A stretch of 37,778 nt of DNA from a virus: the UHGV virus genome UHGV-0340823; one strand, written 5' to 3'. Positions 15,509 to 37,778 of the stretch are shown one piece after another (the stretch's first letter is position 1; every line of letters begins with the position of its first letter). Below the pieces are notes generated by a model, which ran no database searches, was not told where the DNA came from, and saw nothing but the letters and a program-made list of their open reading frames with translations. The translations under genes and the position numbers were made by a program.

Positions 15509-15581
15509 ACCGCTTCTGGCGACCGCTCATGATAGCGCTGCTGTGTGCGGTACTGCTGTTACGGGGTGTCCTGTGGCTGCG

Positions 15582-16173: not shown

Positions 16174-16183
16174 GGAAAAAGGT

Positions 16184-16703: not shown

Positions 16704-16986
16704 TTTCATTACTGAAGATCAGCGTCTGGTCATTCTGCGGTCGCTGGCAGATTACAACGGTGAACTGGGTGAATCCGTGCTCCAGGACTGTCTGGATGAT
16801 TACGGCCACCGCGTGTCCCGCGACACCGTTCACACCCACATTGCCTGGCTTGCCGAGCAGGGACTGGTGCGCAAACGCGTTCTGATTAACGGTTATTTCA
16901 TCGCGGAACTGACCGGCCGGGGGCAGGATGTGGCGGAAGGCCGCGCCAGCGTTCCGGGTGTGAAGAAACCACGCGCAAGGGGGTAA
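16696..16986 (+). CDS. hypothetical winged-helix-like protein (Mu gp26-like position)
   Basis: ORF coupled to its neighbours; synteny. Confidence 0.45.
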   Translation: MSDFITEDQRLVILRSLADYNGELGESVLQDCLDDYGHRVSRDTVHTHIAWLAEQGLVRKRVLINGYFIAELTGRGQDVAEGRASVPGVKKPRARG

Positions 16987-16988
16987 CG

Positions 16989-20823: not shown

Positions 20824-22132
20824 TCTGGGTTATGCCGCCACGCTTCCCTCAAAAGAGGCGGTGGCATACTTCCGCGCCAAAGGGGCGCATATCAGCTGGA
20901 ACTGGTTCGAAACAGACGCGGATGTTCATGCCCGTTCATTCACGGCGGCAAAAGTGGCACGCCTGGACGTACTGACCACACTACAGGCGGAAGTGCAGCG
21001 TGCTGTTGATGAGGGGATTTCACAGAAAGCATTTATTCGCACGCTGACACCCCGCCTGCAAAAGCTGGGATGGTGGGGAAAACAGATTGTGGTGGACAGT
21101 GCCGGTAACGCGGAAGAAGTGCAGCTGGGCAGTCCCCGCCGTCTGGCGCTGATTTACAACGTGAACACCCGTGTGGCTTACAATGCCGGGCGTTACACGC
21201 AGATGATGAACAACACGGACACGCATCCGTTCTGGCAGTATGTGGCGGTGATGGACAGCCGCACCCGCCCGGCACATTCCGCCTTTAACGGGCTGGTATT
21301 CCGCTATGACGATCCGTTCTGGAATACACACTACCCGCCCAATGGCTGGAACTGCCGCTGCCGTGTCCGGCCATTATCTCAGGCCCGTCTGGATGCAATG
21401 GGGTTATCCGTTTCATCCGGTCAGGATCATCTCTCCACCCGCAATGTTGAGGCTGGCGTGGATAAGCAGACCGGAGAAGTCAGAGAAATGCCGGTGACCA
21501 CATATTCAGATGGCACCAGAACCATGACACCGGATGTGGGCTGGTCATATAACCCCGGTTCGGCGGCGTTCGGCACAGACCAGGCGCTGATCCGTAAACT
21601 GATCGAGGTGAAAAGCCCGGCGTTACGGGAAATGGTGGTTCAGGAGATGAACAACAGCCCGGAGCGGCAGCTGGCGTTCCGCATCTGGGCAAAAAACATC
21701 ATGAAGACCCGGCGAGGTGGTCACGATATCCGCACGCTGGGCTTTATGACCGAAAGTATTGCGCAGGCGGTGGAAAGCCGGACGGGAACGCCACCGGCCC
21801 GCCTGCTGGCGATGAGCGGTAAAAATGTGCTCCATGCGGACAGCGTGAAACATCAGAATGACGGCATTGCCCTGACGCCGGAGGATTTCGGGCGATTACC
21901 GGCAATGCTGGCCGCGCCTGATGCCGTGCTGTGGGATCATGTCCATCAGAATCTGCTTTACATCACTGAAACCCGTGACGGAACGGCAAAGATTGCCGTC
22001 AATGCGCCTTATAGTGTGAAACGTCAGCCGGATAAGCTGGATGTGGTGATTAATGCCTACAGAGTCAAAAAGGAGGCATTACTTGATGATCTGCGCGGTG
22101 GAAAGCTGGAATTACTGGAGGGTGAATTGTAG
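20807..22132 (+). CDS. head morphogenesis protein, Mu F (gp30) family
   Basis: 441 aa; synteny after the portal. Confidence 0.75.
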   Translation: MAQGIDLGYAATLPSKEAVAYFRAKGAHISWNWFETDADVHARSFTAAKVARLDVLTTLQAEVQRAVDEGISQKAFIRTLTPRLQKLGWWGKQIVVDSAGNAEEVQLGSPRRLALIYNVNTRVAYNAGRYTQMMNNTDTHPFWQYVAVMDSRTRPAHSAFNGLVFRYDDPFWNTHYPPNGWNCRCRVRPLSQARLDAMGLSVSSGQDHLSTRNVEAGVDKQTGEVREMPVTTYSDGTRTMTPDVGWSYNPGSAAFGTDQALIRKLIEVKSPALREMVVQEMNNSPERQLAFRIWAKNIMKTRRGGHDIRTLGFMTESIAQAVESRTGTPPARLLAMSGKNVLHADSVKHQNDGIALTPEDFGRLPAMLAAPDAVLWDHVHQNLLYITETRDGTAKIAVNAPYSVKRQPDKLDVVINAYRVKKEALLDDLRGGKLELLEGEL

Positions 22133-22218
22133 GTCGGTGGCGGGGGTCGAACCCGCATAAACATCCCTCAGGAAAAAACCATCAGGCGCCGCTTTACCAG
22201 TTAAGAGTACACCGACCT
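22133..22218. other. structured intergenic element: 8-bp inverted repeat enclosing a GC hairpin with a tRNA T-arm-like motif on the minus strand
   Basis: GGTCGGTG ... CACCGACC flank; GCGGG-TTCGACC-CCCGC on the minus strand; followed by CTTTTATTTT. Confidence 0.4.
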
Positions 22219-22254
22219 GCTTTTATTTTAACCAGGTAGTTTCACGGAGGCAAT

Positions 22255-22728
22255 ATGTCATCCATTGATGCCGCTGTCGTTGTTGACGTTACGCGTCTCC
22301 AGCGGGTGTTTGCCCGGCTTCAGTTTGTGGGGGGCGGAAAAGACCTGGCCCGCAGTGTGGCGTCCAGCCTTCTGTCATCCTCAGAAATGGCGTTTGAACA
22401 GGAAAAAGAGCCGGACGGCGAACGCTGGCATGACTGGTCAGATCCTTACCGCAAGTGGCGTACCCGTAAGGGATACACGCCCGGCAAAATCCTGACGCTG
22501 AACGGCGATCTGGCCCGCCGCCTGACCACGGATTATGGCGATACCTGGGCGCTGATTGGATCAAATGAACCTTATGCAGCCATTCATCAGTGGGGTGGCC
22601 TGCCTGGTATGCCACCGGGACTGGCAGCCATTGGCGCACGTCCGTATATGGGCTTTGATGAGGTGGCTGAACAGGAGATCATGGACGAAATCAGAAAACG
22701 CTTTAAAAAGGCCACAGAAACGCCTTAA
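22255..22728 (+). CDS. virion morphogenesis protein, Mu G (gp31) family
   Basis: 157 aa; synteny between F and I. Confidence 0.65.
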   Translation: MSSIDAAVVVDVTRLQRVFARLQFVGGGKDLARSVASSLLSSSEMAFEQEKEPDGERWHDWSDPYRKWRTRKGYTPGKILTLNGDLARRLTTDYGDTWALIGSNEPYAAIHQWGGLPGMPPGLAAIGARPYMGFDEVAEQEIMDEIRKRFKKATETP

Positions 22729-22840
22729 TTGTTTAAGGTATGCAAATGCATTACCTTACCCCCTTCAGGCGCGTGTCGTGATTTTCTAACCTGTATTTAA
22801 CGGGCTTTAAAATCTGCGTGAAGCGCCTTTGTATTTTTCC

Positions 22841-22882
22841 CCTGAAAGCACTTCCTGAAATCCCGCAAAACCCGCCCTGAAA
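22841..22882 (+). promoter_or_regulatory. candidate activator-binding / late promoter repeats upstream of the I-like gene
   Basis: CCTGAAA three times (about 22841, 22854, 22876) in a 176-bp ORF-free gap. Confidence 0.3.
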
Positions 22883-22904
22883 ATTCCCGGCTTATGCTGC
22901 CGGA

Positions 22905-24029
22905 ATGAAGACGAAAAACACGCCCAAACTTGCTTATGCCATTCTGAATGCCATCAGCCTGTCCGCAGACGGGGACGGTGACTGGTGTCAGATCATGCCA
23001 GCCGGTCGGGTAAAGGCCCGTGACGGTCGCCCGGAAAAACCGGCTGAAGGCTGGCTGATTAACCGTGCGACCGTTGAGCGCATGGTATCCCGGGTTGTGG
23101 CGCTCAATCAGCCGGTAAAAATTGACTACAACCACCAGACCCTGATTAAGGGGCATCAGGCACCGGCTGCCGGTTTTGTGACGGCTTCACCGGAAAACTT
23201 CCGCTTCAGTGAAGAGCGTGGCTTCGAGGTGCGCCCGAAGTGGAACCCTCCGGCCCTTGAACATCTGCGTAATAACGAATTCCCCTGGTTTTCACCGGTG
23301 ATTGGCTATGACGAGAACACCGGCGAACCTGTCGAACTTCGGATGCTGGCTATTACCGGTGACCCCGGTCTGACCGGCATGAATCCTGTCGCCGCGCTGT
23401 CGGCGGATGACCTTTATAACGCCTTAAACCCTCCTTTAAAGGATACCTCCATGAATGAGCAATTACGCCAGTTGCTGACGGCGCTCGGTCTGACCGTGGC
23501 TGACGGTGACGAATTTACGCCGGAGCTGGGCACGGCGGCGCTGTCTGCCCTCACCGGGATCAAAACCCGTGCGGATGCACACGACAACCTGAAAACACAG
23601 GTCGCCAGTCTGTCGGCAGAGCTGGAAACCGCAAAAGGCACACCGGCTGGCGGCAGTATTGATCTGACGAAATACGTGCCCGTTGAGACGTATAACGCCC
23701 TGCGTACCGAATATGTCGCGCTGTCGGCACAGCACGGCAGCACCACGCTGGAGCAGTTGCTGGATAAGGCCGAGTCCGAAGGACGCATTTTCAAAAGCGA
23801 ACGCGGATACATGGAAGGACTCGGACAACAGATTGGCGTTGCAGCACTTTCTGCGCAGCTTGACGCCCGCCAGCCGGTTGCGGCTCTGACCGGTCTTCAG
23901 ACCGACACCGTGACCGTGCCGGATAAAAAGACCGCCACCGCCTCGCTGTCGGCTGAAGATATCGCCGCCGCCCATCTTCTGGGTAAAACCGAAGCCGAAT
24001 TCCTGAAAATGAAAGAGGAAATGCAATAA
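22905..24029 (+). CDS. head protease / scaffold, Mu I (gp32) family
   Basis: 374 aa; Ala/Leu-rich coiled-coil C-terminal half; synteny. Confidence 0.65.
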   Translation: MKTKNTPKLAYAILNAISLSADGDGDWCQIMPAGRVKARDGRPEKPAEGWLINRATVERMVSRVVALNQPVKIDYNHQTLIKGHQAPAAGFVTASPENFRFSEERGFEVRPKWNPPALEHLRNNEFPWFSPVIGYDENTGEPVELRMLAITGDPGLTGMNPVAALSADDLYNALNPPLKDTSMNEQLRQLLTALGLTVADGDEFTPELGTAALSALTGIKTRADAHDNLKTQVASLSAELETAKGTPAGGSIDLTKYVPVETYNALRTEYVALSAQHGSTTLEQLLDKAESEGRIFKSERGYMEGLGQQIGVAALSAQLDARQPVAALTGLQTDTVTVPDKKTATASLSAEDIAAAHLLGKTEAEFLKMKEEMQ

Positions 24030-24976
24030 TGCCTACCCCGATTACACCGGCGATGATCACCGCCCTGATGACGGGCTACCGTTCTGATTTTCAGGCCGGG
24101 ATGTCCATGGCCCCGTCGCAGTACAAAAAAATTGCGATGACCGTGCCCTCCACCTCGAAATCCAACACCTACGGCTGGCTGGGGCAGTTCCCGCAGTTCC
24201 GTGAGTGGATCGGCTCCCGCGTCATCGAGAAGATGAAGGCCTATGGCTATGCCATCGTGAACAAAACCTTTGAAGGCACCGTCGCCATTAACCGTGATGA
24301 CTTCGAAGACGATAACCTCGGTATTTATTCCCCGTTGTTCCAGGAGATGGGGCGCGCTGCTGCGGCACAACCGGATGAACTGGTCTTTGCTGCTCTTCGT
24401 GACGGGATTAATGCGGCCTGCTATGACGGCCAGAACTTCTTTGATACCGAACATCCTGTTTACCCCAAAGTGGATGGCTCCGGGGATGCGCAGATGGTCA
24501 GCAATATGTTTGTGGCAAAAACCGGCTCTGTCGGTGCACAGGCGGATTACAGCGGTCCTGCCTGGTATCTGCTCGACTGTTCACGCGCAATCAAACCGCT
24601 GATTTATCAGGATCGCCGTAAGGCTGAACTGGTTGCCCAGACCAAAGTCGATGAAGGTCGCGCATTCACCGATAACGAATTTGTGTTCGGTGCTTCCGCC
24701 CGTCGCAATGTGGGCTACGGCTTCTGGCAGATGGCCTACATGATGCAGTCACCGCTGACGCTGGATGCACTGTGGCACGGCTGGTCAGCCATGCGCGAAT
24801 TTACCGCTGACGGTGGCCGCAAGCTCGGCATCAAACCCACCCATATTGTTGTCCCCACCTCGCTGGAAAAACAGGCGGTGCAGCTGCTGGAGCGTGAACT
24901 GTTCGCAGACGGAAACGCCACCGTCTCTAACGAGATGAAGGGCAAGCTGGAGCTGGTTGTCGCGGATTATCTGTAA
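24029..24976 (+). CDS. major head subunit, Mu T (gp34) family
   Basis: 315 aa; ATG overlaps the preceding stop; synteny. Confidence 0.75.
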   Translation: MPTPITPAMITALMTGYRSDFQAGMSMAPSQYKKIAMTVPSTSKSNTYGWLGQFPQFREWIGSRVIEKMKAYGYAIVNKTFEGTVAINRDDFEDDNLGIYSPLFQEMGRAAAAQPDELVFAALRDGINAACYDGQNFFDTEHPVYPKVDGSGDAQMVSNMFVAKTGSVGAQADYSGPAWYLLDCSRAIKPLIYQDRRKAELVAQTKVDEGRAFTDNEFVFGASARRNVGYGFWQMAYMMQSPLTLDALWHGWSAMREFTADGGRKLGIKPTHIVVPTSLEKQAVQLLERELFADGNATVSNEMKGKLELVVADYL

Positions 24977-25019
24977 ACGGTGAGCCGGGCTTACGGCCCG
25001 GCCCCTGCGGAGGGCAAAT

Positions 25020-25391
25020 ATGAATGAACATCACACTGTGGCAGCAACAGATGATTCAGGTCTTCAGGTCAGTGGTGACAATTCTGTCACGGTGCTGGCA
25101 GAAGTGCGTTGCAGTCGTTCGGCGTTTCGTCGTGCGGGGTTCCTGTTCACGCGTGGACGTCAGCAGGTTGAGGTCACCCCGGAGCAGCTTGCCCGACTGG
25201 AGGCGGAGCCATGCCTCACTGTGCGAATACTACAGACGCCTGCTGATGATGCGGGGAGCGTGGCGGGTGTGGTTCATGCAGTGGCCGGTACAGATTTAGC
25301 CGAAGCCGAAGCCGAAGCCGAAGCCGGACAGGATGCTCCCCGGAAAAAGACCGGTAACAAAGCGAAACAGGCGAAAAAGGCCCGCGCATGA
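25020..25391 (+). CDS. hypothetical head-region protein with (AE)n repeat and basic C-terminus
   Basis: ORF contains the GCCGAA tandem repeat and a Lys-rich tail. Confidence 0.45.
   Translation: MNEHHTVAATDDSGLQVSGDNSVTVLAEVRCSRSAFRRAGFLFTRGRQQVEVTPEQLARLEAEPCLTVRILQTPADDAGSVAGVVHAVAGTDLAEAEAEAEAGQDAPRKKTGNKAKQAKKARA
25299..25328 (+). repeat. GCCGAA hexanucleotide tandem repeat (about four perfect copies plus one imperfect)
   Basis: Directly visible; encodes AEAEAEAEAG in frame. Confidence 0.8.
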
Positions 25392-25807
25392 ATTACGCCA
25401 CTGAAAGCGATATGCGGGCGCGTTACCGCGAGGATTTGCTCAGGCCGTTACTGGCAGTGCCCCGTTCGGATGAGCTGGACACGCGCAAGCTGAACCGGGC
25501 GCTGACAGATGCGTCAGCCCTTATCGACAGCTATCTGTCCGCCCGTTACACGCTGCCGCTGGAGGTTATCCCGGCTGTTCTTGTTCAGCACTGTTGCGCG
25601 ATTGCCTTTTATTACCTGTGCGATCAGCGAGCCTCCGATCAGGCGCGTGACCGTTACCGTGAAGCGCTGGCCTGGCTGAAAGATGTCATGAACGGCAATG
25701 TGCCGGTAGGTGTGGATACGAACGGTGCGGCCCCTGAATCCGGGGATTTACCACAGGTTCAGTCTGATGCAGCGGTATTCGGGCGCAACCAGAAGGGCTT
25801 CATATGA
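25388..25807 (+). CDS. head-tail connector-like protein (Mu gp36 family)
   Basis: Synteny; ATGA overlap. Confidence 0.5.
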   Translation: MNYATESDMRARYREDLLRPLLAVPRSDELDTRKLNRALTDASALIDSYLSARYTLPLEVIPAVLVQHCCAIAFYYLCDQRASDQARDRYREALAWLKDVMNGNVPVGVDTNGAAPESGDLPQVQSDAAVFGRNQKGFI

Positions 25808-26364
25808 TTACGGAAACCGAACAGGCATACATCGCCCGTATCCGTGAGTATTTCGGGAATGAACTTGTGTCTGTTGACACGCATCCCGGCGACTGGAGCG
25901 ACAGCGTACTGCGCACCATGCTGATTAACGCTCCGGCGATCTACGTTGCCTGGCTGGGTGCCGGTGAAGGCCGTACCCGTGGTCGCCTGGTCAGTCACTG
26001 GGTGTTCTACGTCATCGGCGACATGCTCAACGGGCGTGAGGCCAGCCGTCCCGGACTGTATCAGATTGTGGCCCGGCTGATTGCCGTGCTTAACGGCTTC
26101 AGAACCGAAAAAACCTCACCGCTTTACTTTGAAAAGGCGGTCAACGGTTACACCGAAACCCAGGCGAACAGTGGTGCGGTGATGTATGCGCTTTATTTCT
26201 CCTGCGAGGAAATGATCGCACCGCTGACCGATATCAGCTCGCTGGACGACTTCCTGCGTCATTACGAAACCTTTGTGGAGCCGCCCGGTACGCCGCCGTT
26301 TGAGGCACATATTGATTTGCCGGGGAACACGACAACGGCGGTCGAACCGCCGGAGGAACTGTAA
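25804..26364 (+). CDS. Mu gp37-like virion protein
   Basis: Synteny; ATGA overlap. Confidence 0.5.
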   Translation: MITETEQAYIARIREYFGNELVSVDTHPGDWSDSVLRTMLINAPAIYVAWLGAGEGRTRGRLVSHWVFYVIGDMLNGREASRPGLYQIVARLIAVLNGFRTEKTSPLYFEKAVNGYTETQANSGAVMYALYFSCEEMIAPLTDISSLDDFLRHYETFVEPPGTPPFEAHIDLPGNTTTAVEPPEEL

Positions 26365-26643
26365 ATGAAAACCATCTTTATCAAACCCGCGCCGGGACGC
26401 CTGATTCGTGATCCCGACACAATGCGCCCGCTGGCACAGGAGGGGGAGGAAAAAACCTTCACGCCGTTCTGGTGTCGGCGTCTTGATGACGGCGATGTCA
26501 TTCAGCCTGGAAGCCTGCCGGAAAGTGAAGCTCCCGCCGTGACGGAAGAAAACAGTGATAACGACATGGCGATGAATGCCGACCCGGTTATGGACAGTGA
26601 CACGGTATCCGGCCCCGCAGTCTCAGATGAGGAAACGCTCTGA
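26365..26643 (+). CDS. Mu gp38-like small protein
   Basis: Synteny immediately before the sheath gene. Confidence 0.45.
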   Translation: MKTIFIKPAPGRLIRDPDTMRPLAQEGEEKTFTPFWCRRLDDGDVIQPGSLPESEAPAVTEENSDNDMAMNADPVMDSDTVSGPAVSDEETL

Positions 26644-28145
26644 TGATCAGTTTTAATCAGATTGGGGATGATAACCGCATCCCGCTTGTACAGATTGAAT
26701 TTGATAATTCCATGGCCGTCACCGGCACCCCGGCGCAACGTCAGTCTGTGTTGCTGTTCGGGCAGGCTGCCATGAAAGACACCGCCGTACAGGGTTCCGG
26801 TCAACTGGACATTCCTGTACGTATTACCCGTGCATCTCAGGCAAGAGAGCTTTGGGGGCGTGGTTCCATGATTGCGCTGATGGTGGCGGAATTCATCGCC
26901 ATTAATCCCGACACAGAGTTATATGCCATTGCCCAGGGGGCGGGCACTGGTCAGCCGCAGGCGTGTGTGATGAATATCATTGGTACGGCGACGGCAGACG
27001 GTGTGTTATGCGTCTATATTGGTGGTCGCCGTTATCTGCTGGCTGTCGGTACAGGGCAAAAAGGTAAAGCGCTTGTGGAAGCACTTGTGAAGGTCATTAA
27101 CGCCGATGTTGATGCACCATTCACGGCTTATGCAGCAGAAGTCAGTGGAGATAATGCTGAAGGCCTTAAAGGCAGTATGGGGGTGAATGCCCGTTTTACC
27201 GGTGAGTGCTCAGTTCATGATTTACGTGTGAACTATTACGACGGTGAAACCACCCCTTCCGGCCTTACATTGCAGATAACATCTCCAAAACAGAAGGCCA
27301 CAAACCCGGATATCACCCGCAGCGTGGCGGGGATGGGGGATCGTCAGTACAACTACATCGTCATGCCCTATAAGGATGACGCAAACCTGAAGGTGATCAG
27401 CGATGAACTGCTGAAACGCTGGGGACCGGTCAAAATGTCCGATGGAGTCATCTGGATGGCTCACACGGGCACATTCGGAGAAGTACAGGCGTTCGGTGAA
27501 AAACGTAACGATTTTCTTGCTACCTGTACGGCTATTCCAAAAGCACCGGAACCCGATTATCTGTGGGCAGCCTCGGTGTGTGCGACATGCGCACCGTCAT
27601 TATCTTCGGATCCGGCACGTCCACTTCAGACACTGGCCATCACGCCCCGACTGGCACCCGCCGCAGCGGATCGTCTGACCCGTGAAGAGCGAAACAGCCT
27701 GCTGTGGAGCGGTATCGCTACAGTAACCGTCGCAACCGGTGATGTGGTGCAAATCGAACGTCAGGTGACGATGTATCGTCAGAACGCCTATGGAGACAAT
27801 GACCCCAGCTATCTGGATGTGGAAACCGTCTACACCCTTTCATATCTGCGTTACTCCCTGCGAACGTTCATCACGCAGCGTTTTCCGCGCCATAAGCTGG
27901 CGGATAATGGCACACCGGTGAGCGCGGGACAGAATATTGTAACCCCGGAAATCATGACGCTTCAGTTGATTGCTCTGGGTGAGGAATGGGTCGATCAGGG
28001 GTTGGTCGAGAACCTGGACACTTTTAAAAAGAATCTGCTCGTGGAGCGTAACACATCAGATCGCAACCGCCTTGATGTGTTGTGCACACCGGACCTGGTT
28101 AACCAGTTCCGCTTTATGGCCGCGCAGATCCGTTTCATTTTGTGA
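26643..28145 (+). CDS. contractile tail sheath protein (Mu L-like)
   Basis: 500 aa; sheath-tube-chaperone-tape measure order. Confidence 0.8.
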   Translation: MISFNQIGDDNRIPLVQIEFDNSMAVTGTPAQRQSVLLFGQAAMKDTAVQGSGQLDIPVRITRASQARELWGRGSMIALMVAEFIAINPDTELYAIAQGAGTGQPQACVMNIIGTATADGVLCVYIGGRRYLLAVGTGQKGKALVEALVKVINADVDAPFTAYAAEVSGDNAEGLKGSMGVNARFTGECSVHDLRVNYYDGETTPSGLTLQITSPKQKATNPDITRSVAGMGDRQYNYIVMPYKDDANLKVISDELLKRWGPVKMSDGVIWMAHTGTFGEVQAFGEKRNDFLATCTAIPKAPEPDYLWAASVCATCAPSLSSDPARPLQTLAITPRLAPAAADRLTREERNSLLWSGIATVTVATGDVVQIERQVTMYRQNAYGDNDPSYLDVETVYTLSYLRYSLRTFITQRFPRHKLADNGTPVSAGQNIVTPEIMTLQLIALGEEWVDQGLVENLDTFKKNLLVERNTSDRNRLDVLCTPDLVNQFRFMAAQIRFIL

Positions 28146-28153
28146 GGTAATTC

Positions 28154-28519
28154 ATGAGCGGAAAACAGTATCAGGGGACCGCAACCATCCGTGTGAACGG
28201 TCAGGAGTTTGCCACGCTGGAAGGCGCAACCTTCTCGCCATCCGGTTTTGAACGTGAAGCCGTGAAAGGCGCAAAGGTCTACGGTTACCGGGAGAAACCC
28301 CGTGAGGCCACGCTGGAATGCAAATTTCCGGCCGGTGGTGAAGGCTCGCCGGCAACGGATGAAATCAACAGCTGGAACGCAGTCACAATTGAATTCGTCG
28401 CCGATACCGGTGAAGTCCATATGATGACCAAAGCCTGGAGTGTGGAGCCCGCGTCTTTAGATGGTGGTGGCGATATCTCTGCGAAGTTCGCCAGCGCAAC
28501 CAGTACCCGTGTTCAGTAA
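28154..28519 (+). CDS. tail tube protein (Mu M-like)
   Basis: 121 aa after the sheath. Confidence 0.7.
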   Translation: MSGKQYQGTATIRVNGQEFATLEGATFSPSGFEREAVKGAKVYGYREKPREATLECKFPAGGEGSPATDEINSWNAVTIEFVADTGEVHMMTKAWSVEPASLDGGGDISAKFASATSTRVQ

Positions 28520-28528
28520 GGAGCAGTT

Positions 28529-29005
28529 ATGGCATCACGTAAGAAAAAAACAGCGGTTTCAGACGAAGGCGTCATGGAGGCCATTCGTGAAGCGCTTGAA
28601 GGAGGCGATCCGCGCACCGCCGGTCTGACTGAACAACTGGCTAATGGGTATGTGGATCTGCTGGATGGTCTGCCCTGCGGTGAAAGCCGTGAATACCGTG
28701 TCACATTCCGGGAACTGACCGCGAAAGACAGCATTGATGCTGAATCAGAAGCCGAGAAAGTGATGGATACACGTAACGGTCCGATGCTGATTGCGTCTCC
28801 CTCTCTACGGGGGATTGCACTTCTGCGCCGTCAGATTGCCGCTGTCGGTGAGATTCAGGGACCGTTATCCCTCCGCCAGGTTGGGCAGTTGAGTGAACGT
28901 GACCTGTCCCGTCTGATGGCGGCGGTCGGCATTCTGGATACAGCCATGGCCGGAAAGCTGGCGGCTGACCGGGGGCGAGCAGGCGCAGTGTCGGGCGCAG
29001 ATTGA
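28529..29005 (+). CDS. tail assembly chaperone (Mu gp41-like)
   Basis: Position before the tape measure; a start-less open frame overlaps its 3-prime end. Confidence 0.55.
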   Translation: MASRKKKTAVSDEGVMEAIREALEGGDPRTAGLTEQLANGYVDLLDGLPCGESREYRVTFRELTAKDSIDAESEAEKVMDTRNGPMLIASPSLRGIALLRRQIAAVGEIQGPLSLRQVGQLSERDLSRLMAAVGILDTAMAGKLAADRGRAGAVSGAD

Positions 29006-29132
29006 AGAAGCGGCGATAGTACTGGGGATGGTGACGAAAAGCGGCCCGGAATGGGCGCTTAACCTCCCCTTATCGCAACTTTACCGGCACTGCCAACAAA
29101 CGGAAAAAATCCTTAAAGCGAAGCAGTAAACG

Positions 29133-31199
29133 ATGGCAAAAAATCTGAAAGCCTCCCTGATAGTCGATCTGCTCGGCAATATTTCCGCTAAATCTCGCCA
29201 GTGGTCGCAGGAGCTGGGGGCATTTTCCCGTTCCGGACAGTCGGGGCTGGGTGGTCTGGGTAATGCAGCCCGTCGTGCCGGTCAGGAAACTGATCTTGTT
29301 GGCACCCGTATGCAACGTATGCTTGCCGGAGTCCGTGGCAGTATCCGTTCAGTCACCTCTGATTTTGACCGGCTTCAGGGAAGTATTACCGGTACGCTGG
29401 GACGTATCAGCAACCTTTACGGGATGCTGGCCGGTGGTGCGGCTGCGTACGGATTTAACAAGGCTTTTCTTCGTCCCGCATCAGAGATGGAGAATTACAT
29501 TCTTCGTCTCAATGCCATCAATCATGGTGATACATCCAGAACAGAAGACGTCCGTAAGTGGGCTGTCCAGAATGCAAAAGAAACCACGTGGGGGCTGGCC
29601 GGCGTTATGCAGGAATACGCTTCCAGCCGTGGTTTTGGTATGAGTGATAAGGAAGCACGTAACTTTATCACCATGCTTCAGGATCAGGGGGGCTATCACG
29701 GCTGGTCCCTTGCTGACGCGCAGGGCGCATCCCTTCAGCTCAAACAGATGTATTCCCGTGGTGCAATTCAGGCGGCTGATGCCAGTATTCTGACGGGCTA
29801 CGGTATCAACGTTTATCAGTTGCTGGCTGAAAAACTGAAAGTTGATCAGAAAGTACTTCGTGATCTGGGTGGCAAAGGTAAGCTGGGACCGGACAGTATT
29901 CGTCTCCTGTTCCAGGTCATGGCAGAACAGGCAAAAGGTGCACAGAAAAATGCCATGAACTCCTGGACGGGCATGACTGCCATGATGGGGGATGTATGGG
30001 ATGACTTTGCCCGTGACGTCATGGCCAAAGGACCTTTTGACAGCCTTAAAAACAGCCTTAAAGGCTTTCTGGATTATGCTGATGAGGCAAAGTCCAGCAG
30101 TCTTCAGGAAAAACTGGCGGCACAGACAGCGGGTGCCCTGAATCAGGGCTTTGAGTATGCCCGTGATGCGGCAACTGGTTTTTACCGGGCTATTCAGAAG
30201 GTACGGGAAACGCTTCAGGCGCTGCGTGATGCAGGGTATGGCGATACGCTGGACGGTATCGCTCGTGGTGCACAGACAGCTGCGAAATATCTGCTGTATA
30301 TGTATCTGGCCACCCGGGCACTGAAACTGGTCAGGGCTGTTGGTGGAAGTGCGCTGCGTCTTGGTGCAACACCGCTTCGCTGGGGCATGTCCACCGCTTC
30401 TGTTCTGACCTCCCCCTTCCGCAAACCACAGACCACCGTTCCCGAAACCATACCGGGGCGTGGCGGTCGGTTCCTGAATTTTCTGACGGGGGTTAACCCC
30501 GCAGCCATTCAGCCCGTAAATGTCATGAACTGGCCAGCCGGTGCCATGGCGGGGGGCGTTTCTGATGTGATCAGCGGAGGTGAAGGAAAACGTCAGCGTG
30601 GACGCACCAGACGCGGGCCGGGGCGCGGACGCCCGGTGACGTCGGTTGTTACTGTACCGGCAACGCCGCCAGCCTCACCCCCTCAGGGCTTCTTCGGGCG
30701 CATGATGAGCCGTGCCGGTGGCTTGCTTTCATCCGCCGGTAACCGGCTGGGTATGGGGCGTTTCTCCGGCCTTTTCCGCCGTGCCGGTGGGGTTGCCGGT
30801 CGTTTGGGCGGTGGAGCCCTTTGGGCCGGGGCGATGGCCGCCCCTGTCCTGCTGGACGATAGTGCCAGTGCTACCAACAAGGGGGAGGCTGTCGGCTCTC
30901 TTGCTGGCAGCATTGCCGGTGGAGCGCTGGGAGCTGCGGCAGGACCTGTCGGCGTGGCTATCGGTTCAACGGTGGGAAGTTATCTCGGTAATTATCTCGG
31001 CGGCTGGCTGACAGAAGCCTGGCAAAAACTACGGGGGGATACCGATAACAGCGGAGGAAAAGCCGCTGAACAGGCTTCTGCCCGTGTGGAGCTGGTTGCC
31101 CCGGATGGCTGGAGCGCAAGAAGTATTGATATCAATGAAACCTCCGGCAGTTCGCTGGATGTGGATGTCTGGAACGGAGGTAACTATGTCCACTGGTGA
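29133..31199 (+). CDS. tail tape measure protein
   Basis: 688 aa; Gly/Ala-rich repetitive C-terminal half; synteny. Confidence 0.8.
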   Translation: MAKNLKASLIVDLLGNISAKSRQWSQELGAFSRSGQSGLGGLGNAARRAGQETDLVGTRMQRMLAGVRGSIRSVTSDFDRLQGSITGTLGRISNLYGMLAGGAAAYGFNKAFLRPASEMENYILRLNAINHGDTSRTEDVRKWAVQNAKETTWGLAGVMQEYASSRGFGMSDKEARNFITMLQDQGGYHGWSLADAQGASLQLKQMYSRGAIQAADASILTGYGINVYQLLAEKLKVDQKVLRDLGGKGKLGPDSIRLLFQVMAEQAKGAQKNAMNSWTGMTAMMGDVWDDFARDVMAKGPFDSLKNSLKGFLDYADEAKSSSLQEKLAAQTAGALNQGFEYARDAATGFYRAIQKVRETLQALRDAGYGDTLDGIARGAQTAAKYLLYMYLATRALKLVRAVGGSALRLGATPLRWGMSTASVLTSPFRKPQTTVPETIPGRGGRFLNFLTGVNPAAIQPVNVMNWPAGAMAGGVSDVISGGEGKRQRGRTRRGPGRGRPVTSVVTVPATPPASPPQGFFGRMMSRAGGLLSSAGNRLGMGRFSGLFRRAGGVAGRLGGGALWAGAMAAPVLLDDSASATNKGEAVGSLAGSIAGGALGAAAGPVGVAIGSTVGSYLGNYLGGWLTEAWQKLRGDTDNSGGKAAEQASARVELVAPDGWSARSIDINETSGSSLDVDVWNGGNYVHW

Positions 31200-32601
31200 C
31201 GGCAAGGGGTCGTTTCGCGGTGTGCCATTCCTGGTATTTCGCGAACAGCGTGAACGCGGTGGGCGTAATATCGTTCGCCGGGAATATCCGTTACAGGAAC
31301 GGGGCGGTGCAGATGATCTGGGGCCAAAACTGCCGGAATACACCTTCACCGTACTGGTGATGGGAGAGGATGTTCACACGCAACGAAGCCGTCTTCGGGA
31401 TGCCCTTCGCGCCCCCGGGCCGGGTGAACTTATGCACCCGGAATATGGCACTTTAAACGTGATGATAAACAGCTTTGAAAGCCGTTACAGCGCCGATGAA
31501 CAGCGCATTGTTGAATTCACAATTAATGTGTCTCCGGTCAGTGATGAAACAGCGCCAACGGCCAGCCAGGATACGGCTGCACTTCTGGAGGCCAGAAGTG
31601 GTGCAGCCCTGAACAGCATGTTTGGTACGCTGGCAAGTGGCTGGACCGTCATTTCCGATGGTATGCATGATGTGCAGGCAATGGCTGAAACCATCAGTGA
31701 CAAAATTGAGGCGCTGGAAAATTCCGTTTCCGGGATGGGGATTGTGCAGGATATCAGTGCCTTTACGGCCACGTTTACGGCGCTTAAAGGTAACGTTACC
31801 GCATTGCTCACAAGTCCGCAGCGAATGGCGGAATCACTGGCGGGTATGTTTGTCACCCTGACGGCATTACCCACGATCCCTGCGCTCTCCCTTACCCGGA
31901 AGAATACCGGCAGTACCGTAACCGGTGCTTCCGGGGGGAATGGCGGTACGGTTTACACCAGAGGCAGTGGAGGCGAATTGCCCGCAGGGAGTCTGGATGT
32001 GGTGATGCAGAGCACCCTTGAACAGGGACTTCCTCAGCTCTACAGAACCTTATCCTCCCTGCGTTATGCGCTGACAGAACAGGATGATCCACAGCGTCTG
32101 ATTGGGCTTACCCCGCCAGCTCAACAAAATATCCGGCTTCTCAGGGCAGTGATGCAGAGTGCAGCCGTGGTGTCTCAGGCTCAGACAGTGGGAAAATTGC
32201 TGGATCAGGTAATCAGTCTTGAAACAGCCCGGACAAGTAATAACACGAAGTCAGCCGGTCTTGTCTGGCTGGAAAGTGCCGCAGATGTTGAGCGTATCAA
32301 CCGTGATTTGAGTGATGCGCTTGAATTACAGGTCATGGATTTGTCTGCGCTGGGGTATACCTCCACAGCCCTGACTCTCAGGGATGCCCGCCTGGCGTTG
32401 ACAGAAGATCTTACGGTCAGGGCGGTCTCCCTGCCGGGGGCTGTACAGGTATCCGTCCGGGCGACAGAACCTGCACTGGTAACCCTGTACCGTGAAACAG
32501 GAAACAGCACCCGCTGGCAACATTTTGTGCGTCGTAACAACATTTCAGACCCGCTTTTTGTGCCGGGGGGAAGTACTGTGGAGGTGATCAGTGAACAGTA
32601 A
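31186..32601 (+). CDS. DNA circularisation protein N-like (Mu gp43 family)
   Basis: ATG at 31186 overlapping the tape measure stop; synteny. Confidence 0.65.
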   Translation: MSTGDGKGSFRGVPFLVFREQRERGGRNIVRREYPLQERGGADDLGPKLPEYTFTVLVMGEDVHTQRSRLRDALRAPGPGELMHPEYGTLNVMINSFESRYSADEQRIVEFTINVSPVSDETAPTASQDTAALLEARSGAALNSMFGTLASGWTVISDGMHDVQAMAETISDKIEALENSVSGMGIVQDISAFTATFTALKGNVTALLTSPQRMAESLAGMFVTLTALPTIPALSLTRKNTGSTVTGASGGNGGTVYTRGSGGELPAGSLDVVMQSTLEQGLPQLYRTLSSLRYALTEQDDPQRLIGLTPPAQQNIRLLRAVMQSAAVVSQAQTVGKLLDQVISLETARTSNNTKSAGLVWLESAADVERINRDLSDALELQVMDLSALGYTSTALTLRDARLALTEDLTVRAVSLPGAVQVSVRATEPALVTLYRETGNSTRWQHFVRRNNISDPLFVPGGSTVEVISEQ

Positions 32602-33721
32602 AGTGGAGCTGTATCTTGGCAGCCAGATTTTTACCGGCTGGGTGACGGTCAGTGTACGACGTTCTCTTGAACATCTTGCGGGATCATTCGAGCTGGGCCT
32701 TATGCTCCCCGGTGAACCGGTTCCGGCGATCATCTCGCCCGGTCAGTCAGTGACACTGAAAATTAACGGTCAGACAGTCATCAGCGGCTGGCTGGATCAG
32801 GTGAATCAGAGTATCAGCGCCACGCGTTATCAAATTACTATCAGTGGCCGCGATAAAACAGGTGATCTGGTTGACTGCTCTGCTGTTCACCAGGGAAGTC
32901 AGTGGCGGAACCGGACGCTGGCCCAGATAGCCGCTGATTTGTGTGCGCCGTTTGGTATCAGCGTTCGCTGGCAGGTTAATGATGTCACGGCAGAGAAACC
33001 GTTCGCATCTTTCACGCTTGAGAACTCAGAAACAGTGGCGGATGCACTCACACGAGCCGCACGGCATCGTGGGGTTCTGGTAACCAGTAACGCTGTGGGT
33101 GAACTGGTTTTTACTCAGGCTGGAAGCAAGCAGACCGATACGCTTGTACTGGGTGAGAATTTGCTTGAGGCCATTTATAACGATGACCACCGTATGCGCT
33201 ACAGCGAATACCGAATCAGAGGACACGGGCGCGGAGGCGGCAAATCCGGTGACAGCGCAAAACCAGCCAGCCTGTCTGCACCGGTCGGGGTGGTGAATGA
33301 CGAAGGTGTTACCCGTTACCGTCCGAAAATTGTTCTCGCCGATCATCACATTGATACCAGCGGAGCCACACAGCGGGGATTACGGGAAATGCGCCGGGCA
33401 GTGGCCCGTTCCTCCCGCTTTACCGCCGTGGTGCGTACCTGGTTCCGCTCAGACGGCACGTTGTGGGATCTTAATCTGCTGACGCGCGTTACCGCTTCAC
33501 GGTTTGGTATTGACCAGCGTGATCTGCTGATTTGCCAGGTTGAATTCTCCCTGGACGCACAAAAAGGCGAAACCACGCGGCTGATTCTTGCCCCCCGTGA
33601 TGGTTTTATTGTTCCTGCGGAGCCTGACAGTAAAGGTCGGGGCGGAAATGATGCCGGTGGCGTGGATGCCTTTATCCATCAGCAGATGAAAAAACAGGGG
33701 ATCACCTTTAATGATAAATGA
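32591..33721 (+). CDS. baseplate hub / tail protein P-like (Mu gp44 family)
   Basis: GTG start overlapping the previous stop; synteny. Confidence 0.65.
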   Translation: MNSKVELYLGSQIFTGWVTVSVRRSLEHLAGSFELGLMLPGEPVPAIISPGQSVTLKINGQTVISGWLDQVNQSISATRYQITISGRDKTGDLVDCSAVHQGSQWRNRTLAQIAADLCAPFGISVRWQVNDVTAEKPFASFTLENSETVADALTRAARHRGVLVTSNAVGELVFTQAGSKQTDTLVLGENLLEAIYNDDHRMRYSEYRIRGHGRGGGKSGDSAKPASLSAPVGVVNDEGVTRYRPKIVLADHHIDTSGATQRGLREMRRAVARSSRFTAVVRTWFRSDGTLWDLNLLTRVTASRFGIDQRDLLICQVEFSLDAQKGETTRLILAPRDGFIVPAEPDSKGRGGNDAGGVDAFIHQQMKKQGITFNDK

Positions 33722-34325
33722 AGAGGTTTTCAGCCGCCTTATAGCCCCCGTTATGCGTGGGGTGCGTCTTCTGATTGGACGGGGGGTTCTTACCGGTATC
33801 CGTGATGAGCTGAAAATGCAGAATGTACAGCTTACCGGAATGGAGGGGGAAACGTTTGATGATGTTGAACGGCCACAGCAGTACGGACAAATCAGCGTAC
33901 CCTTACCGGGGGCGGAGCTATTCTTCGCCTGTCCTGGTGGTCAGCGTGATCAGGCCGTTGTTCTGGTGGTTGATGACCGGCGTTACCGCCCATCCGGGCT
34001 GACTTCCGGCGACAGTGGGCTTTATCACTACGAAGGGCACCGCATTCGCCTGACAAAAGACGGACGCATCATCATCACCTGCCGGACGCTTGAGATTTTT
34101 GCTGATGAGCGCGTGAGCGTTGATACCCCTGAAACGGTCTTCACCGGCGATGTCATCGTGGAAAAAAATCTGCATGTGAAAGGCAATCTTGCGATCGATG
34201 GAACCGGTATGTCAAAAGGCACATTTACTATGTCTGAAGCCAAGATTGCGGGGATCACCTATTCCGGACATGTGCACCATGACAACGGCAAAGGAAGTAA
34301 AACAGGAGGACCGGAAAATGGCTGA
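33711..34325 (+). CDS. baseplate spike / assembly protein (Mu gp45, gpV-like)
   Basis: Synteny; about 200 aa. Confidence 0.6.
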   Translation: MINEEVFSRLIAPVMRGVRLLIGRGVLTGIRDELKMQNVQLTGMEGETFDDVERPQQYGQISVPLPGAELFFACPGGQRDQAVVLVVDDRRYRPSGLTSGDSGLYHYEGHRIRLTKDGRIIITCRTLEIFADERVSVDTPETVFTGDVIVEKNLHVKGNLAIDGTGMSKGTFTMSEAKIAGITYSGHVHHDNGKGSKTGGPENG

Positions 34326-34755
34326 TATTGCCGTGATATGGAAACAGGGGCATGGTGCACTGCAACTGAATGGCGCAGATCTTCTGACAGACAATACATT
34401 GCAGACGGCAGTGATTATCTCACTGTTTACTGATCGTCGAGCCCTGGCATCAGATGTCATACCAGATGGTACCCGCGATCGCCGTGGATGGTGGGGTGAC
34501 AGCTTCCGGGAATACCCCATAGGCTCCCGTCTGTGGTTGCTGAGCCGGGAAAAAACGCTTACTTCGGTGGTAAGTCGTGCACAGGCGTATGCGGATGAGG
34601 CGCTGGCATGGCTTCGTCAGAGCGGCGTTGCATCGGATGTTGTGTGTCGTGCTGAACGAACGGCGCACGAGCAACTTTCATTATTTGTTGAAATCACGCT
34701 GCCGGACGGCAGTCGGGAACCCATGATTTTTTATGCTGATATTAAGGGGGAATGA
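34318..34755 (+). CDS. baseplate protein (Mu gp46, gpW/gp25-like)
   Basis: ATG at 34318 overlapping the previous stop. Confidence 0.6.
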   Translation: MADIAVIWKQGHGALQLNGADLLTDNTLQTAVIISLFTDRRALASDVIPDGTRDRRGWWGDSFREYPIGSRLWLLSREKTLTSVVSRAQAYADEALAWLRQSGVASDVVCRAERTAHEQLSLFVEITLPDGSREPMIFYADIKGE

Positions 34756-35837
34756 TGCCTTATCAGCCCTTGCCACTGGCGCAACTGATCACCCAGACAC
34801 AGCAGGATATCAGCCAGCGTCTTCCCGGTTCCCAGCCGGGTGTGAGTGAAACAACATTAAATGCCATTGCATATGCTCAGGCCGGGTTGTCTGCGCAGGA
34901 GCATGAGCACCTTGCCTGGATTGCCAGGCAGATTATTCCGACAGAAGCAGACGAGGCTGAACTGCTGAAACACTGTTCCTTCTGGGGTGTGATCCGTAAA
35001 CCGGCATCACGTGGCGATGGTCCCGTCCAGTTGATGCTGACGACAGATGCCGGGGTGACCGAAGGGGTACAACTTCAGCGCAGTGATGGTGAGGTGTACC
35101 GCATCACCGGGTCTGTTACCGGAAAGGCCGGAACCCTGACCGTGCAGGTTGAAGCGGAAAATGCAGGTCGTTCCGGTAATGCCCCAGCAGGTACCCCCCT
35201 GACGTTCGTCACCCCGCAGGCGGGTATAAATCAGACAGCCACCATTACCGGTACGGGGATCACCGGAGGTGCGGATGTTGAGTCAGTCCCGGAATTGCTG
35301 TCCCGCCTGGTGTTTCGTGTACAGAATCCACCATCCGGTGGTACGCAGTATGATTTTGAGCGCTGGGCGCGTGAAGTTCCGGGGGTAACCCGTGCATGGT
35401 GTAAACCGGAATGGCCTCAGGCTGGCAGCGTTGGAGTGACCTTTGTTCAGGATAACAACCCTGATATTTTCCCCGGCGAAGGTGACGTACAGCGCGTGGC
35501 GGAATATATCCGTAGCCATGATGATCCAGCAACGGGGCAACCCGTCGGACAGCCACTGGGACCAACGGTAAAGGTCTTTAAGTTAACGAATAAGCCCGTG
35601 GATTTTGAAATCCGCATAGTCCCGAAAACGCCGGAGAACCAGGCTGCTGTAAAGCAGGCGCTGACAGACCTGTTGTATAACGAATCAAGCCCGGGGGCCC
35701 TGGTTCTTCCGTCTTCATTCTGGCGAACCGTGGCAGGTGTGAAAAATCTTGAGGATTTTGAAGTCCGCAGCCCCCTCAAATCGGTTATGGCTGGTGATGC
35801 TGAATTGCTGACGGTGGGAGAAATTACATGGCTCTGA
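34752..35837 (+). CDS. baseplate J-like protein (Mu gp47 family)
   Basis: 361 aa; synteny. Confidence 0.7.
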   Translation: MMPYQPLPLAQLITQTQQDISQRLPGSQPGVSETTLNAIAYAQAGLSAQEHEHLAWIARQIIPTEADEAELLKHCSFWGVIRKPASRGDGPVQLMLTTDAGVTEGVQLQRSDGEVYRITGSVTGKAGTLTVQVEAENAGRSGNAPAGTPLTFVTPQAGINQTATITGTGITGGADVESVPELLSRLVFRVQNPPSGGTQYDFERWAREVPGVTRAWCKPEWPQAGSVGVTFVQDNNPDIFPGEGDVQRVAEYIRSHDDPATGQPVGQPLGPTVKVFKLTNKPVDFEIRIVPKTPENQAAVKQALTDLLYNESSPGALVLPSSFWRTVAGVKNLEDFEVRSPLKSVMAGDAELLTVGEITWL

Positions 35838-36385
35838 CGCTTGCAGCTCATCAGCGCGCATTGTTGCAGCTCCTACCCGATGGCCTGGCATGGGATAAAC
35901 GTCCTGAATCCGTGTTGTCAGCCTTATGTCTTGGGCTAAGTCACGCCACCGAGCGTGTATCCTGGACGGCTAATCAGTTACTTTCGGAGCGCTTTCCGGA
36001 AACATCCCGGATGTTACTGGAGGACTGGGAGCGTTATCTGGGGTTGCCTGAATGTGATATGGCAGGAGCAACGTTGCAGGAGCGCCAGCGATACGCGGCG
36101 AATAAATACCGTATGAAGCCGTCACTGAACCGCGAGTTTTATATCCGGTTTGCGGCTGAATTTGGCTATGTGATTGATATTCAGCCATCACCGGAATCGC
36201 AGTGGATCAGTATTGTGACCGTAAAAAGCGAGGTTGGGTATCGTCACATGCATGTGCTCGATCACATTCTGACGCCTCTGCGGATATATGAAGGTGGTGC
36301 GCTGGAATGCATTTTAAACCGGTATAAACCGGCCTGGCAGACGTTTTTATACATTTACGAAAAGTCGCATGAGGAGACGGAATAA
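35828..36385 (+). CDS. tail protein (Mu gp48 family)
   Basis: 185 aa between the J-like and tail-fibre genes. Confidence 0.6.
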
Positions 36386-37344
36386 TGTATTTCGTGGATA
36401 ACAATACCGGTACGACAGAGATGCCAGCGCTGGCTCCATCGCAGGGTACTGAAGTTAAGTGGTTTACGGAAGGCGACGGTAATAAAGGTATCAGCCATAT
36501 CGGGCAGGACTGGCTTAATATCATTCAGGCAGAATTGCTTGCGATTTTGACTGAAGGAAAAATTCAACCAGATAAAATGAAGCTGAATCAGCTTACACTG
36601 GCAATCAAGGCCATTATTACGGCCAATGCTTTTTTACGTAAAAACAACCTGAAAGAAATCGAGGATGCGGGAGCTGGTGCTCAGGCGAATGCCAGAAAAG
36701 CTCTTGGGCTGGGGACTCTGGCGACAAAAGATAAGCTTTCACCAACAGATGTTGGTGCGCTTGAAAAAAGCAAAAATTTGTCTGACGTACCCGATAAAGT
36801 TGCGGCCCGTACCAACCTTGGGGTTTACAGTAAAGAAGAAGGTGATCGGCGTTATCTGAAAAGCGGCGCAGATAATGGTTCATATAGTCGCGAACAAAGT
36901 GATGGGTCATATCTTAAGGTTGCGTCAAATGGTTCTGACATTGCAAACAGAAGTGCCTTTATCGATAACCTCGGTTTGGGAGAAGCGGCAAAACGGGGTG
37001 TGGGAACAGGGGAAAATCAGATACCGGACATGGCTTCATTTAGTGGGGTGAGGGATTATTACGGAAAACAACTTTTGCCAGGAGGGTTGATACTTCAGTG
37101 GCTGACGATTCCATCAAGTGCAGCAGCCAAAGCTGTAACACTGAATAATGGTAATTATCAGCTGTCAGGCTATAAATGGCCCCAGTCATTTGGTGTCCTG
37201 TTTGCTGTGTTTGCTACAAAAGTTTCTGGCTCGACTAACGAAGCATATGCAATCTCAGTTAATCGTCACTCTACCGATGTAATTGTCACCTGGAATGCCC
37301 GTAAGGCTGATGATGTCCACATTTTAGGAATTGGGAAATTATGA
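36385..37344 (+). CDS. tail fibre protein (Mu S-like), containing a candidate invertase crossover site
   Basis: 319 aa, Gly/Ser/Asn-rich; followed by a tail-fibre assembly gene; AT-richer composition. Confidence 0.7.
36959..36984 (+). other. candidate serine-invertase crossover site (gix/hix-like, 26 bp)
   Basis: TTATCGATAACCTCGGTTTGGGAGAA: about 20 of 26 positions match Mu gix and Salmonella hixL as recalled, including the central TC dinucleotide. Confidence 0.5.
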
Positions 37345-37760
37345 AAATGAAATGGTCCCCATCTGTTCAGGGATTTTTCTCTGAAAATAACAGCGATATT
37401 CCCGATGATGCTTTCGATATTGAAGATGCTCTTTATTATGAACTTATGAATGGTCAGAGTACGGGGAAAATTATTATCAATAACCCGGATAACTACCCTG
37501 TACTTACTGAATATCCAGCGAAGACACAGGAACAGGAAATAGCTGAAGCGGAGGGAATGAAAAGTATACTTATTGAACAGGCCAACGAATACATGAACAG
37601 TAAGCAATGGCCTGGTAAAGCCGCTATTGGTCGTCTGAAAGGTGAGGAACTGGCGCAATATAATTTGTGGCTGGATTATCTGGACGCACTGGAACTGGTT
37701 GATACCTCCAGTGCTCCAGATATTGAATGGCCTACGCCTCCGGCAGTTCAGGCCAGATGA
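37341..37760 (+). CDS. tail fibre assembly protein (Mu U-like)
   Basis: 139 aa; start overlaps the tail-fibre stop; typical small acidic Tfa composition. Confidence 0.7.
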
Positions 37761-37778
37761 CATCCGGCGCAGTGCTGG

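Follow-up and report, generated by a model that had tools for sequence, protein, structure and literature searches.

Locus organization

The viral genome UHGV-0340823, a stretch of 37,778 nucleotides (nt) that was analysed in full and is referred to here as the window, carries close to its right edge a tail-fibre gene that contains a 26-bp crossover site of the Din family (Gin/Pin type). The fibre open reading frame (ORF) occupies 36385..37344 on the + strand and encodes 319 amino acids (aa). Protein and parent alignments divide it into a constant part of Mu-like phage lineage (36385-36958), the crossover site (36959..36984, + strand), and a variable tip (36985-37344) that is identical to the StfP-type tip of the P segments of e14 and P2-like prophages. 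As a reading of the same DNA from its letters alone (the sequence-only reading) had stated, a tail-fibre assembly gene follows, which is of the TfaP type, encodes 139 aa, and matches Pfam Caudo_TAP (37341..37760, + strand); the window stops 18 nt past its stop codon. That reading had also predicted a second, oppositely oriented pair of assembly and fibre genes, and the first trace of it lies in the window while the remainder falls past the edge. Specifically, the last 47 bases (37732..37778), translated on the minus strand, give the last residues and the stop codon of a convergent TfaE-type assembly gene that is cut by the window edge. These residues are identical to TfaE of the P2-like prophage L003, with a 100% tblastn match over the last 14 aa of TfaE (window 37776-37735), and differ from the 143-aa Tfa variant of the loci L008 and L017. 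Judged by this match, the truncated gene appears to be the start of the alternative cassette.

A Din-family crossover site in the tail-fibre gene

On the + strand, the whole 26-mer (36959-36984) reads TTATCGATAACCTCGGTTTGGGAGAA and consists of an outer half-site TTATCGATAACC (36959-36970), the core TC (36971-36972), and an inner half-site GGTTTGGGAGAA (36973-36984); on the opposite strand it reads TTCTCCCAAACC GA GGTTATCGATAA. It opens in codon 192 of the 319-codon fibre ORF and spans codons 192-200, which code for F-I-D-N-L-G-L-G-E. The 26-bp architecture of two imperfectly symmetrical 12-bp half-sites and a 2-bp core was confirmed, in that both halves conform to the pattern TTnTCnnAAACC with a single deviation in the left half (T for A, position 8). 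Compared with the characterised Din-family sites (PMC3241671, Table 3), the site shares 22/26 positions with pixL, 21/26 with mixQ''R', and 20/26 with each of gixL, hixL, pixR, cixR, bixL, and bixR; the earlier figure of about 20 of 26 positions for Mu gix and hixL was, therefore, exact. One half-site is identical to the pix half-site at 12/12 positions, and the GA core is the core of gix and bix.

Using a half-site weight matrix made from nine published hix/gix/cix/pix/bix sites, the site scored 28.8 bits, while the published sites themselves scored 18.8-31.3 bits and 50 shuffled windows reached a maximum of 16.7 and a mean of 10.9 bits. No second copy of the 26-mer with three or fewer mismatches is present in the window, and 0/100 shuffles gave a match. 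Based on the matrix score relative to the shuffles and the identity to the pix half-site, a chance match is rejected. We conclude that the 26-mer is a genuine Din-family (Gin/Pin) crossover site at the constant/variable boundary of the tail-fibre gene, in agreement with the proposal of a gix/hix-like site with two 12-bp half-sites around TC.

The second-best matrix match in the window, TTTTCAAAAAAC GC GGTTTTAAAGTG at 14080-14105, scored 18.7 bits, just over the shuffle maximum, and sits in the early region within a homologue of a gp16-family gene. Its GC core and its distance of 22.9 kb from the fibre site led us to reject it as a partner site, and it is probably a chance match. Within the 37,778 nt, neither an invertase gene (by tblastn) nor a second good site (by matrix scan) was found, as anticipated by the claim that the window ends before any invertase gene or partner site.

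Homology breaks within the 26-mer

At the protein level, the boundary between the constant and variable parts lies at N-L-G-L-G/R-E. An identical 127-aa C-terminus is carried on three unrelated N-termini (the window fibre, P2-type H, and e14 StfP), and the N-terminus of the window fibre is joined to at least three different C-termini across its relatives. The exact TfaP protein was found in 3295 index blocks of the collection; all 10 of the contexts shown lie within an Sv-tfa/tfa'-Sv' segment, with a resolvase-family gene alongside in 9/10. A megablast of the fibre constant part against the phage collection gave no match at that level.

We used window 35800-37778 as a megablast query against 5426 complete E. 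coli genomes, and none of their records covered the full query. The left part of the query matched two genomes at 99.5-99.9% identity, with matches ending at window 36977 or 36992, and the right part matched ~2300 genomes, with starts between 36954 and 36973 among the matches listed. The fibre constant part is present in only 2/5426 of these genomes, both of which have the native segment. In a three-way alignment, the window follows the Mu-like parent (L001/L020) through site position 19 and the P2-like parent (L003/L011) from site position 15 on. Two positions are diagnostic of the parents: position 14, the second core base, is C as in the Mu-like parent and T in all 14 P-type loci, and position 20 is G as in the P-type loci and A in the Mu-like parent. 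The alignment places the joint between positions 14 and 20 of the site, no more than 5 nt from the central dinucleotide, where serine invertases cleave. That homology breaks inside the 26-mer confirms the suggested place of the constant/variable boundary at codon 192. It is incompatible with the site being the phage's own intact crossover site because the window follows one parent to position 19 and the other from position 15. Given the established cleavage chemistry of the serine invertase family, the combination of the left parent's top-strand core with the right half of the other parent would correspond to one of the two products that replication should yield from an exchange between unlike cores.

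The joint is present on only two contigs, the window and ENA ERZ27281703 k141_3210, which encode the same 319-aa fibre product. The second contig extends just 17 nt beyond the window end and both end in tfaE, probably because the tfaE/StfE half recurs elsewhere in the genome. Exact junction patterns of 35 and 30 nt had no match in the genome, viral, or metagenome contig collections. A protein search with the constant part gave no high-identity fusion to an StfE-type tip, which is weak evidence as the window's own protein was also unlisted.

The left part of the site matches an inverting Mu-like prophage

Window 3940..36977 (+ strand) holds the left-hand 33 kb of a transposable prophage of the Mu-like type; it starts with the left end of that prophage, which begins TGTAACCAGG, and reaches to the fibre site. 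A 39-kb prophage of E. coli DETEC-S792 aligns collinearly with window 3940-36992 at 96-99% identity (over L005 7655-40284), and its annotation includes Mu transposase, Mor, portal, Mu-type head, sheath, baseplate, Com, and methyltransferase. The gene order from the left end is of the Mu type (repressor region, transposase A/B, Mor, lysis, head, tail, baseplate, and fibre). The fibre gene of the DETEC-S792 copy carries TTATCGATAACC TC GGTTTACGGGAA at the same codon as the window site and has an inverted partner 1.4 kb downstream that reads ATCCCTGAAACC TC GGTTTACGGGAA inward.

We sampled 13 Mu-like copies, which occupy different chromosomal positions. In all of them, the sites TTCCCGTAAACC GA GGTTATCGATAA and TTCCCGTAAACC GA GGTTTCAGGGAT bound the 1.4-kb segment and are unchanged, and a gene for a 186-aa serine recombinase lies ~55 nt past the right-hand site; this invertase matches the Gin structures 3uj3/4m6f with E=2e-91. 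The segment is oriented one way in seven copies and the other way in six, and a comparison of two of the loci (L020 and L001) revealed a 1435-nt segment inverted at 99.2% identity between collinear flanks. Because the 13 copies comprise both orientations, the window has the outer half-site and the TC core of a site with demonstrable inversion in the Mu-like lineage. The ~6.8 kb of the intact copy from this site to the right end, which hold the invertible segment, the invertase gene, a DUF6645 gene, com, and the methyltransferase gene, are absent from the window.

The native 1.4-kb segment (L001 8160-9610; L020 2752-4202) contains two fibre tips and one tfa gene. In the orientation that gives a 322-aa fibre, tfa points away from the fibre gene, and in the orientation that gives a 317-aa fibre it follows the fibre gene. 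Thus, one of the tips of the native segment may need no chaperone, unlike the S/U and S'/U' arrangement of Mu.

The right part of the site matches the P segment of P2-like prophages and e14

From the base after the site to the window end, the window is identical to the P2-like prophages L003 and L011 at 794/794 positions. We fetched 15 P-segment contexts, including e14 and P2-like prophages, and in 15/15 the order is an StfP-type tip with tfaP, a convergent tfa, and then a second tip. The convergent tfa is of the TfaE type in 12 contexts and of the 143-aa type in two, while one has a 72-nt remnant. An inverted partner site lies ~1.86 kb away in 13/15 contexts, and a gene with Resolvase and HTH_7 domains adjoins the segment in 14/15, in one of these as a 76-aa remnant. 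Sites were extracted from 14 P-type loci (L017 and L018 were left unscanned, and L019 carries a different cassette). The site on the side of the StfP tip carries TTCTCCCAAACC AA in 14/14. On the fibre strand, the pix site reads TTCTCGCATACC TT GGTTTGGGAGAA. An inverted partner of the TTCTCCCAAACC AA form is present in 12/14, and L008 has a far site with a different inner half.

This segment also inverts in nature. Between L010 and L007, a 1878-nt segment of 99.95% identity is inverted while the flanks are 100% and 99.98% identical over 4930 nt each; the exchange points lie inside the 26-mers, and the outer half-sites are swapped exactly at the core. The e14 P segment has been inverted experimentally by PinE, PinQ, and PinR (PMC12529663; PMC4272514), and the published e14 inverted repeat, TTGGTTTGGGAGAAGG, overlaps the window sequence (PMC12529663).

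Two e14-type loci (L014 and L015 7474-7499) have the sequence TTCTCCCAAACC AA CCTTTTAGAAAA at the site on the invertase side, and they either lack the invertase gene or retain only a 76-aa remnant of it. In such e14 copies, the P segment may rely on invertases acting in trans, as reported for PinQ and PinR.

The Mu-like prophage is nested in a P2-like prophage

Pfam searches and alignments to L003 and L083 identified window 1..3939 (+ strand) as part of a P2-like prophage, with genes for GpO, the major capsid protein GpN, the small terminase GpM, GpL, and holin/lysozyme, followed by the first 222 nt of the next lysis gene. This portion is 99.77% collinear with L083 4822-8760, a P2-like prophage of E. 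coli 2018-166, and the sequence directly left of the Mu-like end (window 3015-3939) is identical to L003 1-925 at 925/925 positions. The insertion point of the Mu-like phage is, therefore, 222 nt into the gene following the lysozyme gene. At the other end, window 36959-37778 is collinear with L083 13836-14655, i.e. with the same P2-like prophage as window 1-3939. Relative to L083, the window lacks 5,089 nt (8761-13849), in place of which it has the left-hand 33 kb of the Mu-like phage; this L083 stretch comprises the remaining lysis genes, R, S, V, W, J, I, and the H constant part. These alignments show that a Mu-like prophage is inserted within a P2-like prophage and, because the right cassette and the left flank belong to the same P2-like prophage, we read the crossover site as a hybrid seam. 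The partner site in L083 is at +1858 and its invertase gene at +1939 to +2505; the core of that partner is AA versus GA in the window site.

A separate link between the two types of phage was seen in L019 1-3448 (GCA_053802295.1 contig DBKYET010000047.1), in which a Mu-type baseplate gene and a fibre constant part with 62% identity to that of the window are joined to P2 genes. The site in this contig reads TTCTCCCAAACC AA CGTTATCGATAA, and the link runs via a P segment to invertase, sheath, and tube genes of the P2 type. It reflects either another recombination between prophages at their crossover sites or a shared repeat through which the assembly passed.

A model for the origin of the seam

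We consider it likely that the site is a recombinant seam between a Mu-like fibre gene and the tip of the surrounding P2-like prophage, and that this seam is probably locked. As for how it arose, we give about an even chance to a very recent invertase-mediated exchange between sites of the two prophages, with unlike cores and possibly in direct repeat, that fused the shaft of one fibre to the tip of the other.

According to this model, the Mu-like phage would have transposed into the lysis region of a P2-like prophage and would have been oriented like the P2 late genes. Each phage would then have had its own segment: the Mu-like one, of 1.4 kb, with sites of GA core and a Gin-like invertase of 186 aa, and the e14-type one of the P2-like prophage, of 1.86 kb, with pix sites of AA core and an invertase of the Pin type. 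The left site of the Mu-like segment and the pix site of the StfP tip would have been separated by ~11.9 kb (6.8 + 5.1 kb). An exchange no more than 5 nt from the central dinucleotide would have joined the Mu-like constant part to the P2-like tip and chaperone genes. With the sites in direct repeat, the same event would have deleted the Mu-like segment, the invertase gene, and the right end together with the P2 genes that run from the lysis region through the H constant part; with the P segment in the other orientation, the outcome would have been inversion rather than deletion. Based on homology to L083, the DNA next to the window would hold the rest of tfaE, an StfE-type tip, a pixR-type site, and a Pin-type invertase gene, with the partner site expected at window-equivalent 38817-38842 (~1.04 kb past the edge) and the invertase gene at 38898-39464 (~1.1-1.7 kb past the edge). 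If the deletion route was taken, the composite prophage is probably defective, since the Mu right end would be missing along with half of the tail genes of P2.

Several considerations weigh against this model. The sequence past 37778 is limited to 17 nt, and what became of the Mu-like right end is inferred, as are the partner site and the invertase. The two contigs with the joint have the same orientation, and with n=2 this informs little either way. A pix-type half with a GA core occurs at both ends of segments in other phages, so that a matching partner is possible. Wild-type invertases strongly prefer inverted sites, and the deletion version of the model needs direct repeats. Finally, the proposed origin needs ligation across mismatched cores, which is hard for invertases (PMC4817059). 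Because of the mismatched core and, in the deletion version, the direct repeats, a joint made by an invertase would have been a rare event.

Alternative explanations for the seam

We also considered that the window derives from an intact Mu-like phage with a working switch, in which the P-type cassette was swapped in at both sites and a GA-core partner, tfaE/StfE, and the phage's own Gin-like invertase lie past the edge. We regard this as unlikely, even though intact relatives keep the segment and the invertase and flip the segment (13/13), the outer half-site and the GA core of the window are the same as in these relatives, inverted pairs of TTCTCCCAAACC GA GGTT sites lie beside invertases in many viral contigs, and the end of tfaE is present in the window. 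Such a swap needs two exchanges instead of one and, with a cassette identical at 794/794 positions to the P segment of the flanking prophage, one event is simpler. Indeed, a single exchange fits better than a double-site swap because the flanks are identical to the donor prophage. Moreover, the StfP tip and tfaP behave as single-copy sequence, with the contig running ~800 nt past the site, whereas a second identical P segment should break a k=141 assembly near the site; this argument from assembler behaviour also favours a single exchange. A second crossover by homologous recombination within the invertase genes is unlikely, as the DNA identity between the Gin-like and the Pin-type gene is only ~72-75%. 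The right junction predicted by a double swap, TTCTCCCAAACCGAGGTTTCAGGGAT, was unseen in the collections scanned, but so was the window's own junction. Similarly, the double-swap junction TTCTCCCAAACC GA GGTTTCAGGGAT was present in 0/52 loci with a pix-type half and a GA core, a result that is uninformative since the left junction was absent too.

Alternatively, the two fibre genes could have been joined by short-homology or microhomology recombination, or by template switching, in the shared AACCT(C/T)GGTTT that encodes N-L-G-L, in which case the location at a crossover site would reflect shared sequence rather than catalysis. The parental sites do share ACCT and GGTTT around the joint, and the mismatched core, possibly together with direct-repeat geometry, weighs against an invertase route. 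Nevertheless, the exact shared run is 5 nt, far under the requirement for RecA-dependent recombination, and the switch point lies no more than 5 nt from the cleavage positions of both sites. In addition, a like boundary is found wherever the cassette meets unrelated fibre genes, and genes for as many as two invertases of the appropriate family (Gin-like and Pin-type) would have lain within 12 kb. We therefore hold this route to be quite improbable. A chimeric contig assembled from reads of two prophages is far less probable still: although the assemblies behind both joint contigs are of the short-read style and the contigs stop in a region prone to repeats, and L019 also links a Mu-like fibre to P2 tail genes via the P segment, the parents share at most 5-11 nt at the joint, too few for a k=141 de Bruijn graph, the identical 319-aa product is found on two contigs, and the reading frame is kept across the joint.

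The recombinant seam is probably locked

If the surrounding P2-like prophage supplied the tip of the fibre, the expected partner of the site would be the native pixR-type site of that prophage. The core of the window site is TC (GA) versus TT (AA) in 14/14 P-type loci. In the Hin system, altering one core base of a single hix site blocks ligation in the inverted orientation, and only products in the parental orientation are obtained (PMC4817059). Because of the core mismatch with the expected AA/TT partner, further inversion is predicted to be blocked or very inefficient. With the native pixR as partner, the fibre would thus be fixed, with a Mu-like shaft and an StfP-type tip, and this analysis favours a frozen joint over a working switch. 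A pix-type half combined with a GA core is usable elsewhere, as inverted pairs of such sites flank StfE/TfaE-like cassettes beside invertases in many viral and metagenome contigs. The suggestion that the site marks a probable invertible host-range switch, therefore, holds for the family of the site, its position, and the visible end of tfaE; the hybrid seam and the TC versus TT core speak against it, and the switch is probably locked.

Relation to known inversion systems

Invertible tail-fibre segments are textbook host-range switches, and Din-family systems have an adjacent serine invertase gene (Resolvase and HTH_7 domains) that holds a Fis-dependent enhancer. The closest counterparts of the right-hand part of the locus are the P segment, pix sites, and PinE of e14 in E. 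coli K-12 and the corresponding segments of P2-like prophages: the inner half-site is pix at 12/12 positions, the tip and tfaP are 98.9-100% identical, and a convergent tfaE comes next. Unlike in these segments, the core in the window is TC/GA instead of TT/AA, and the outer half-site and the fibre constant part are Mu-like rather than those of StfP or P2 H.

With the G segment, gix, and Gin of Mu, the window shares the host element, a Mu-like transposable prophage, the position of the site at the Sc/Sv boundary, and the GA core, and intact relatives have the Gin homologue directly after the segment, which occurs in both orientations. The Mu G segment is 3 kb and carries S/U and S'/U', whereas the segment of the relatives is 1.4 kb with a single tfa, and in the window the native segment has been replaced. 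Hin/hix of Salmonella, Cin/cix of P1, Min/mix of p15B, and PinB/bix of Shigella have 12-2-12 sites with 20-21/26 identity and recombinases of the same family. They differ in that Hin controls flagellin and not fibres, Min acts on multiple sites, and none has the flanking genes of the window.

Mosaicism of tail fibres at invertase crossover sites was reportedly proposed in the early 1990s for P2 H, P1 S, Mu S, and p15B (by Haggard-Ljungquist and by Sandmeier, Iida, and Arber). As in those proposals, unrelated N-termini and shared C-termini meet here at a crossover site; in contrast to them, both parents are known at 99-100% identity and nested in one region, and the joint is located within 5 nt. 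The kind of element is already known; what is new is that the fibre genes of two prophages have been fused, apparently recently, at their crossover sites and that both parents are resolved. An old idea, that unrelated phages exchange receptor-binding tips at invertase crossover sites, becomes directly testable with this case. If the proposed origin is correct, the window provides a parent-resolved natural example of invertases shuffling modules between phages, a role long proposed from mosaic fibres, and documents that a mismatched-core product is able to survive in vivo; it is, in any case, a natural case for asking about the fate of the DNA after an exchange between unlike-core sites. For annotation, the lesson is that a crossover site in a fibre gene is not equal to a working switch and that the identity of its core with that of the partner needs checking. 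Nested prophages can, moreover, yield composite and probably defective elements.

Additional features of the parental and related elements

In the early region, ~1.2 kb of the window (12759-13955) has no match in the otherwise collinear DETEC-S792 prophage and looks like a replaced block of accessory genes, as judged by this alignment. All intact Mu-like copies encode, after the invertase, a 679-aa protein with SASA (sialate O-acetylesterase-like) and DUF6645 domains (L005 42416-44455) that is absent from the window. This protein may be a second tail protein directed at the host surface or an enzyme for lysogenic conversion.

Among the viral and metagenome contigs (L021-L072), many have inverted pairs of TTCTCCCAAACC GA GGTT sites 2.2-2.5 kb apart. 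Their cassettes are only 40-55% identical to StfE/TfaE and their invertases ~73% identical to the Gin-like one, and several of the contigs start or stop within a few nt of such a site. Based on their sequences, these contigs appear to represent a broad family of fibre switches that combine pix-type half-sites with gix-type cores.

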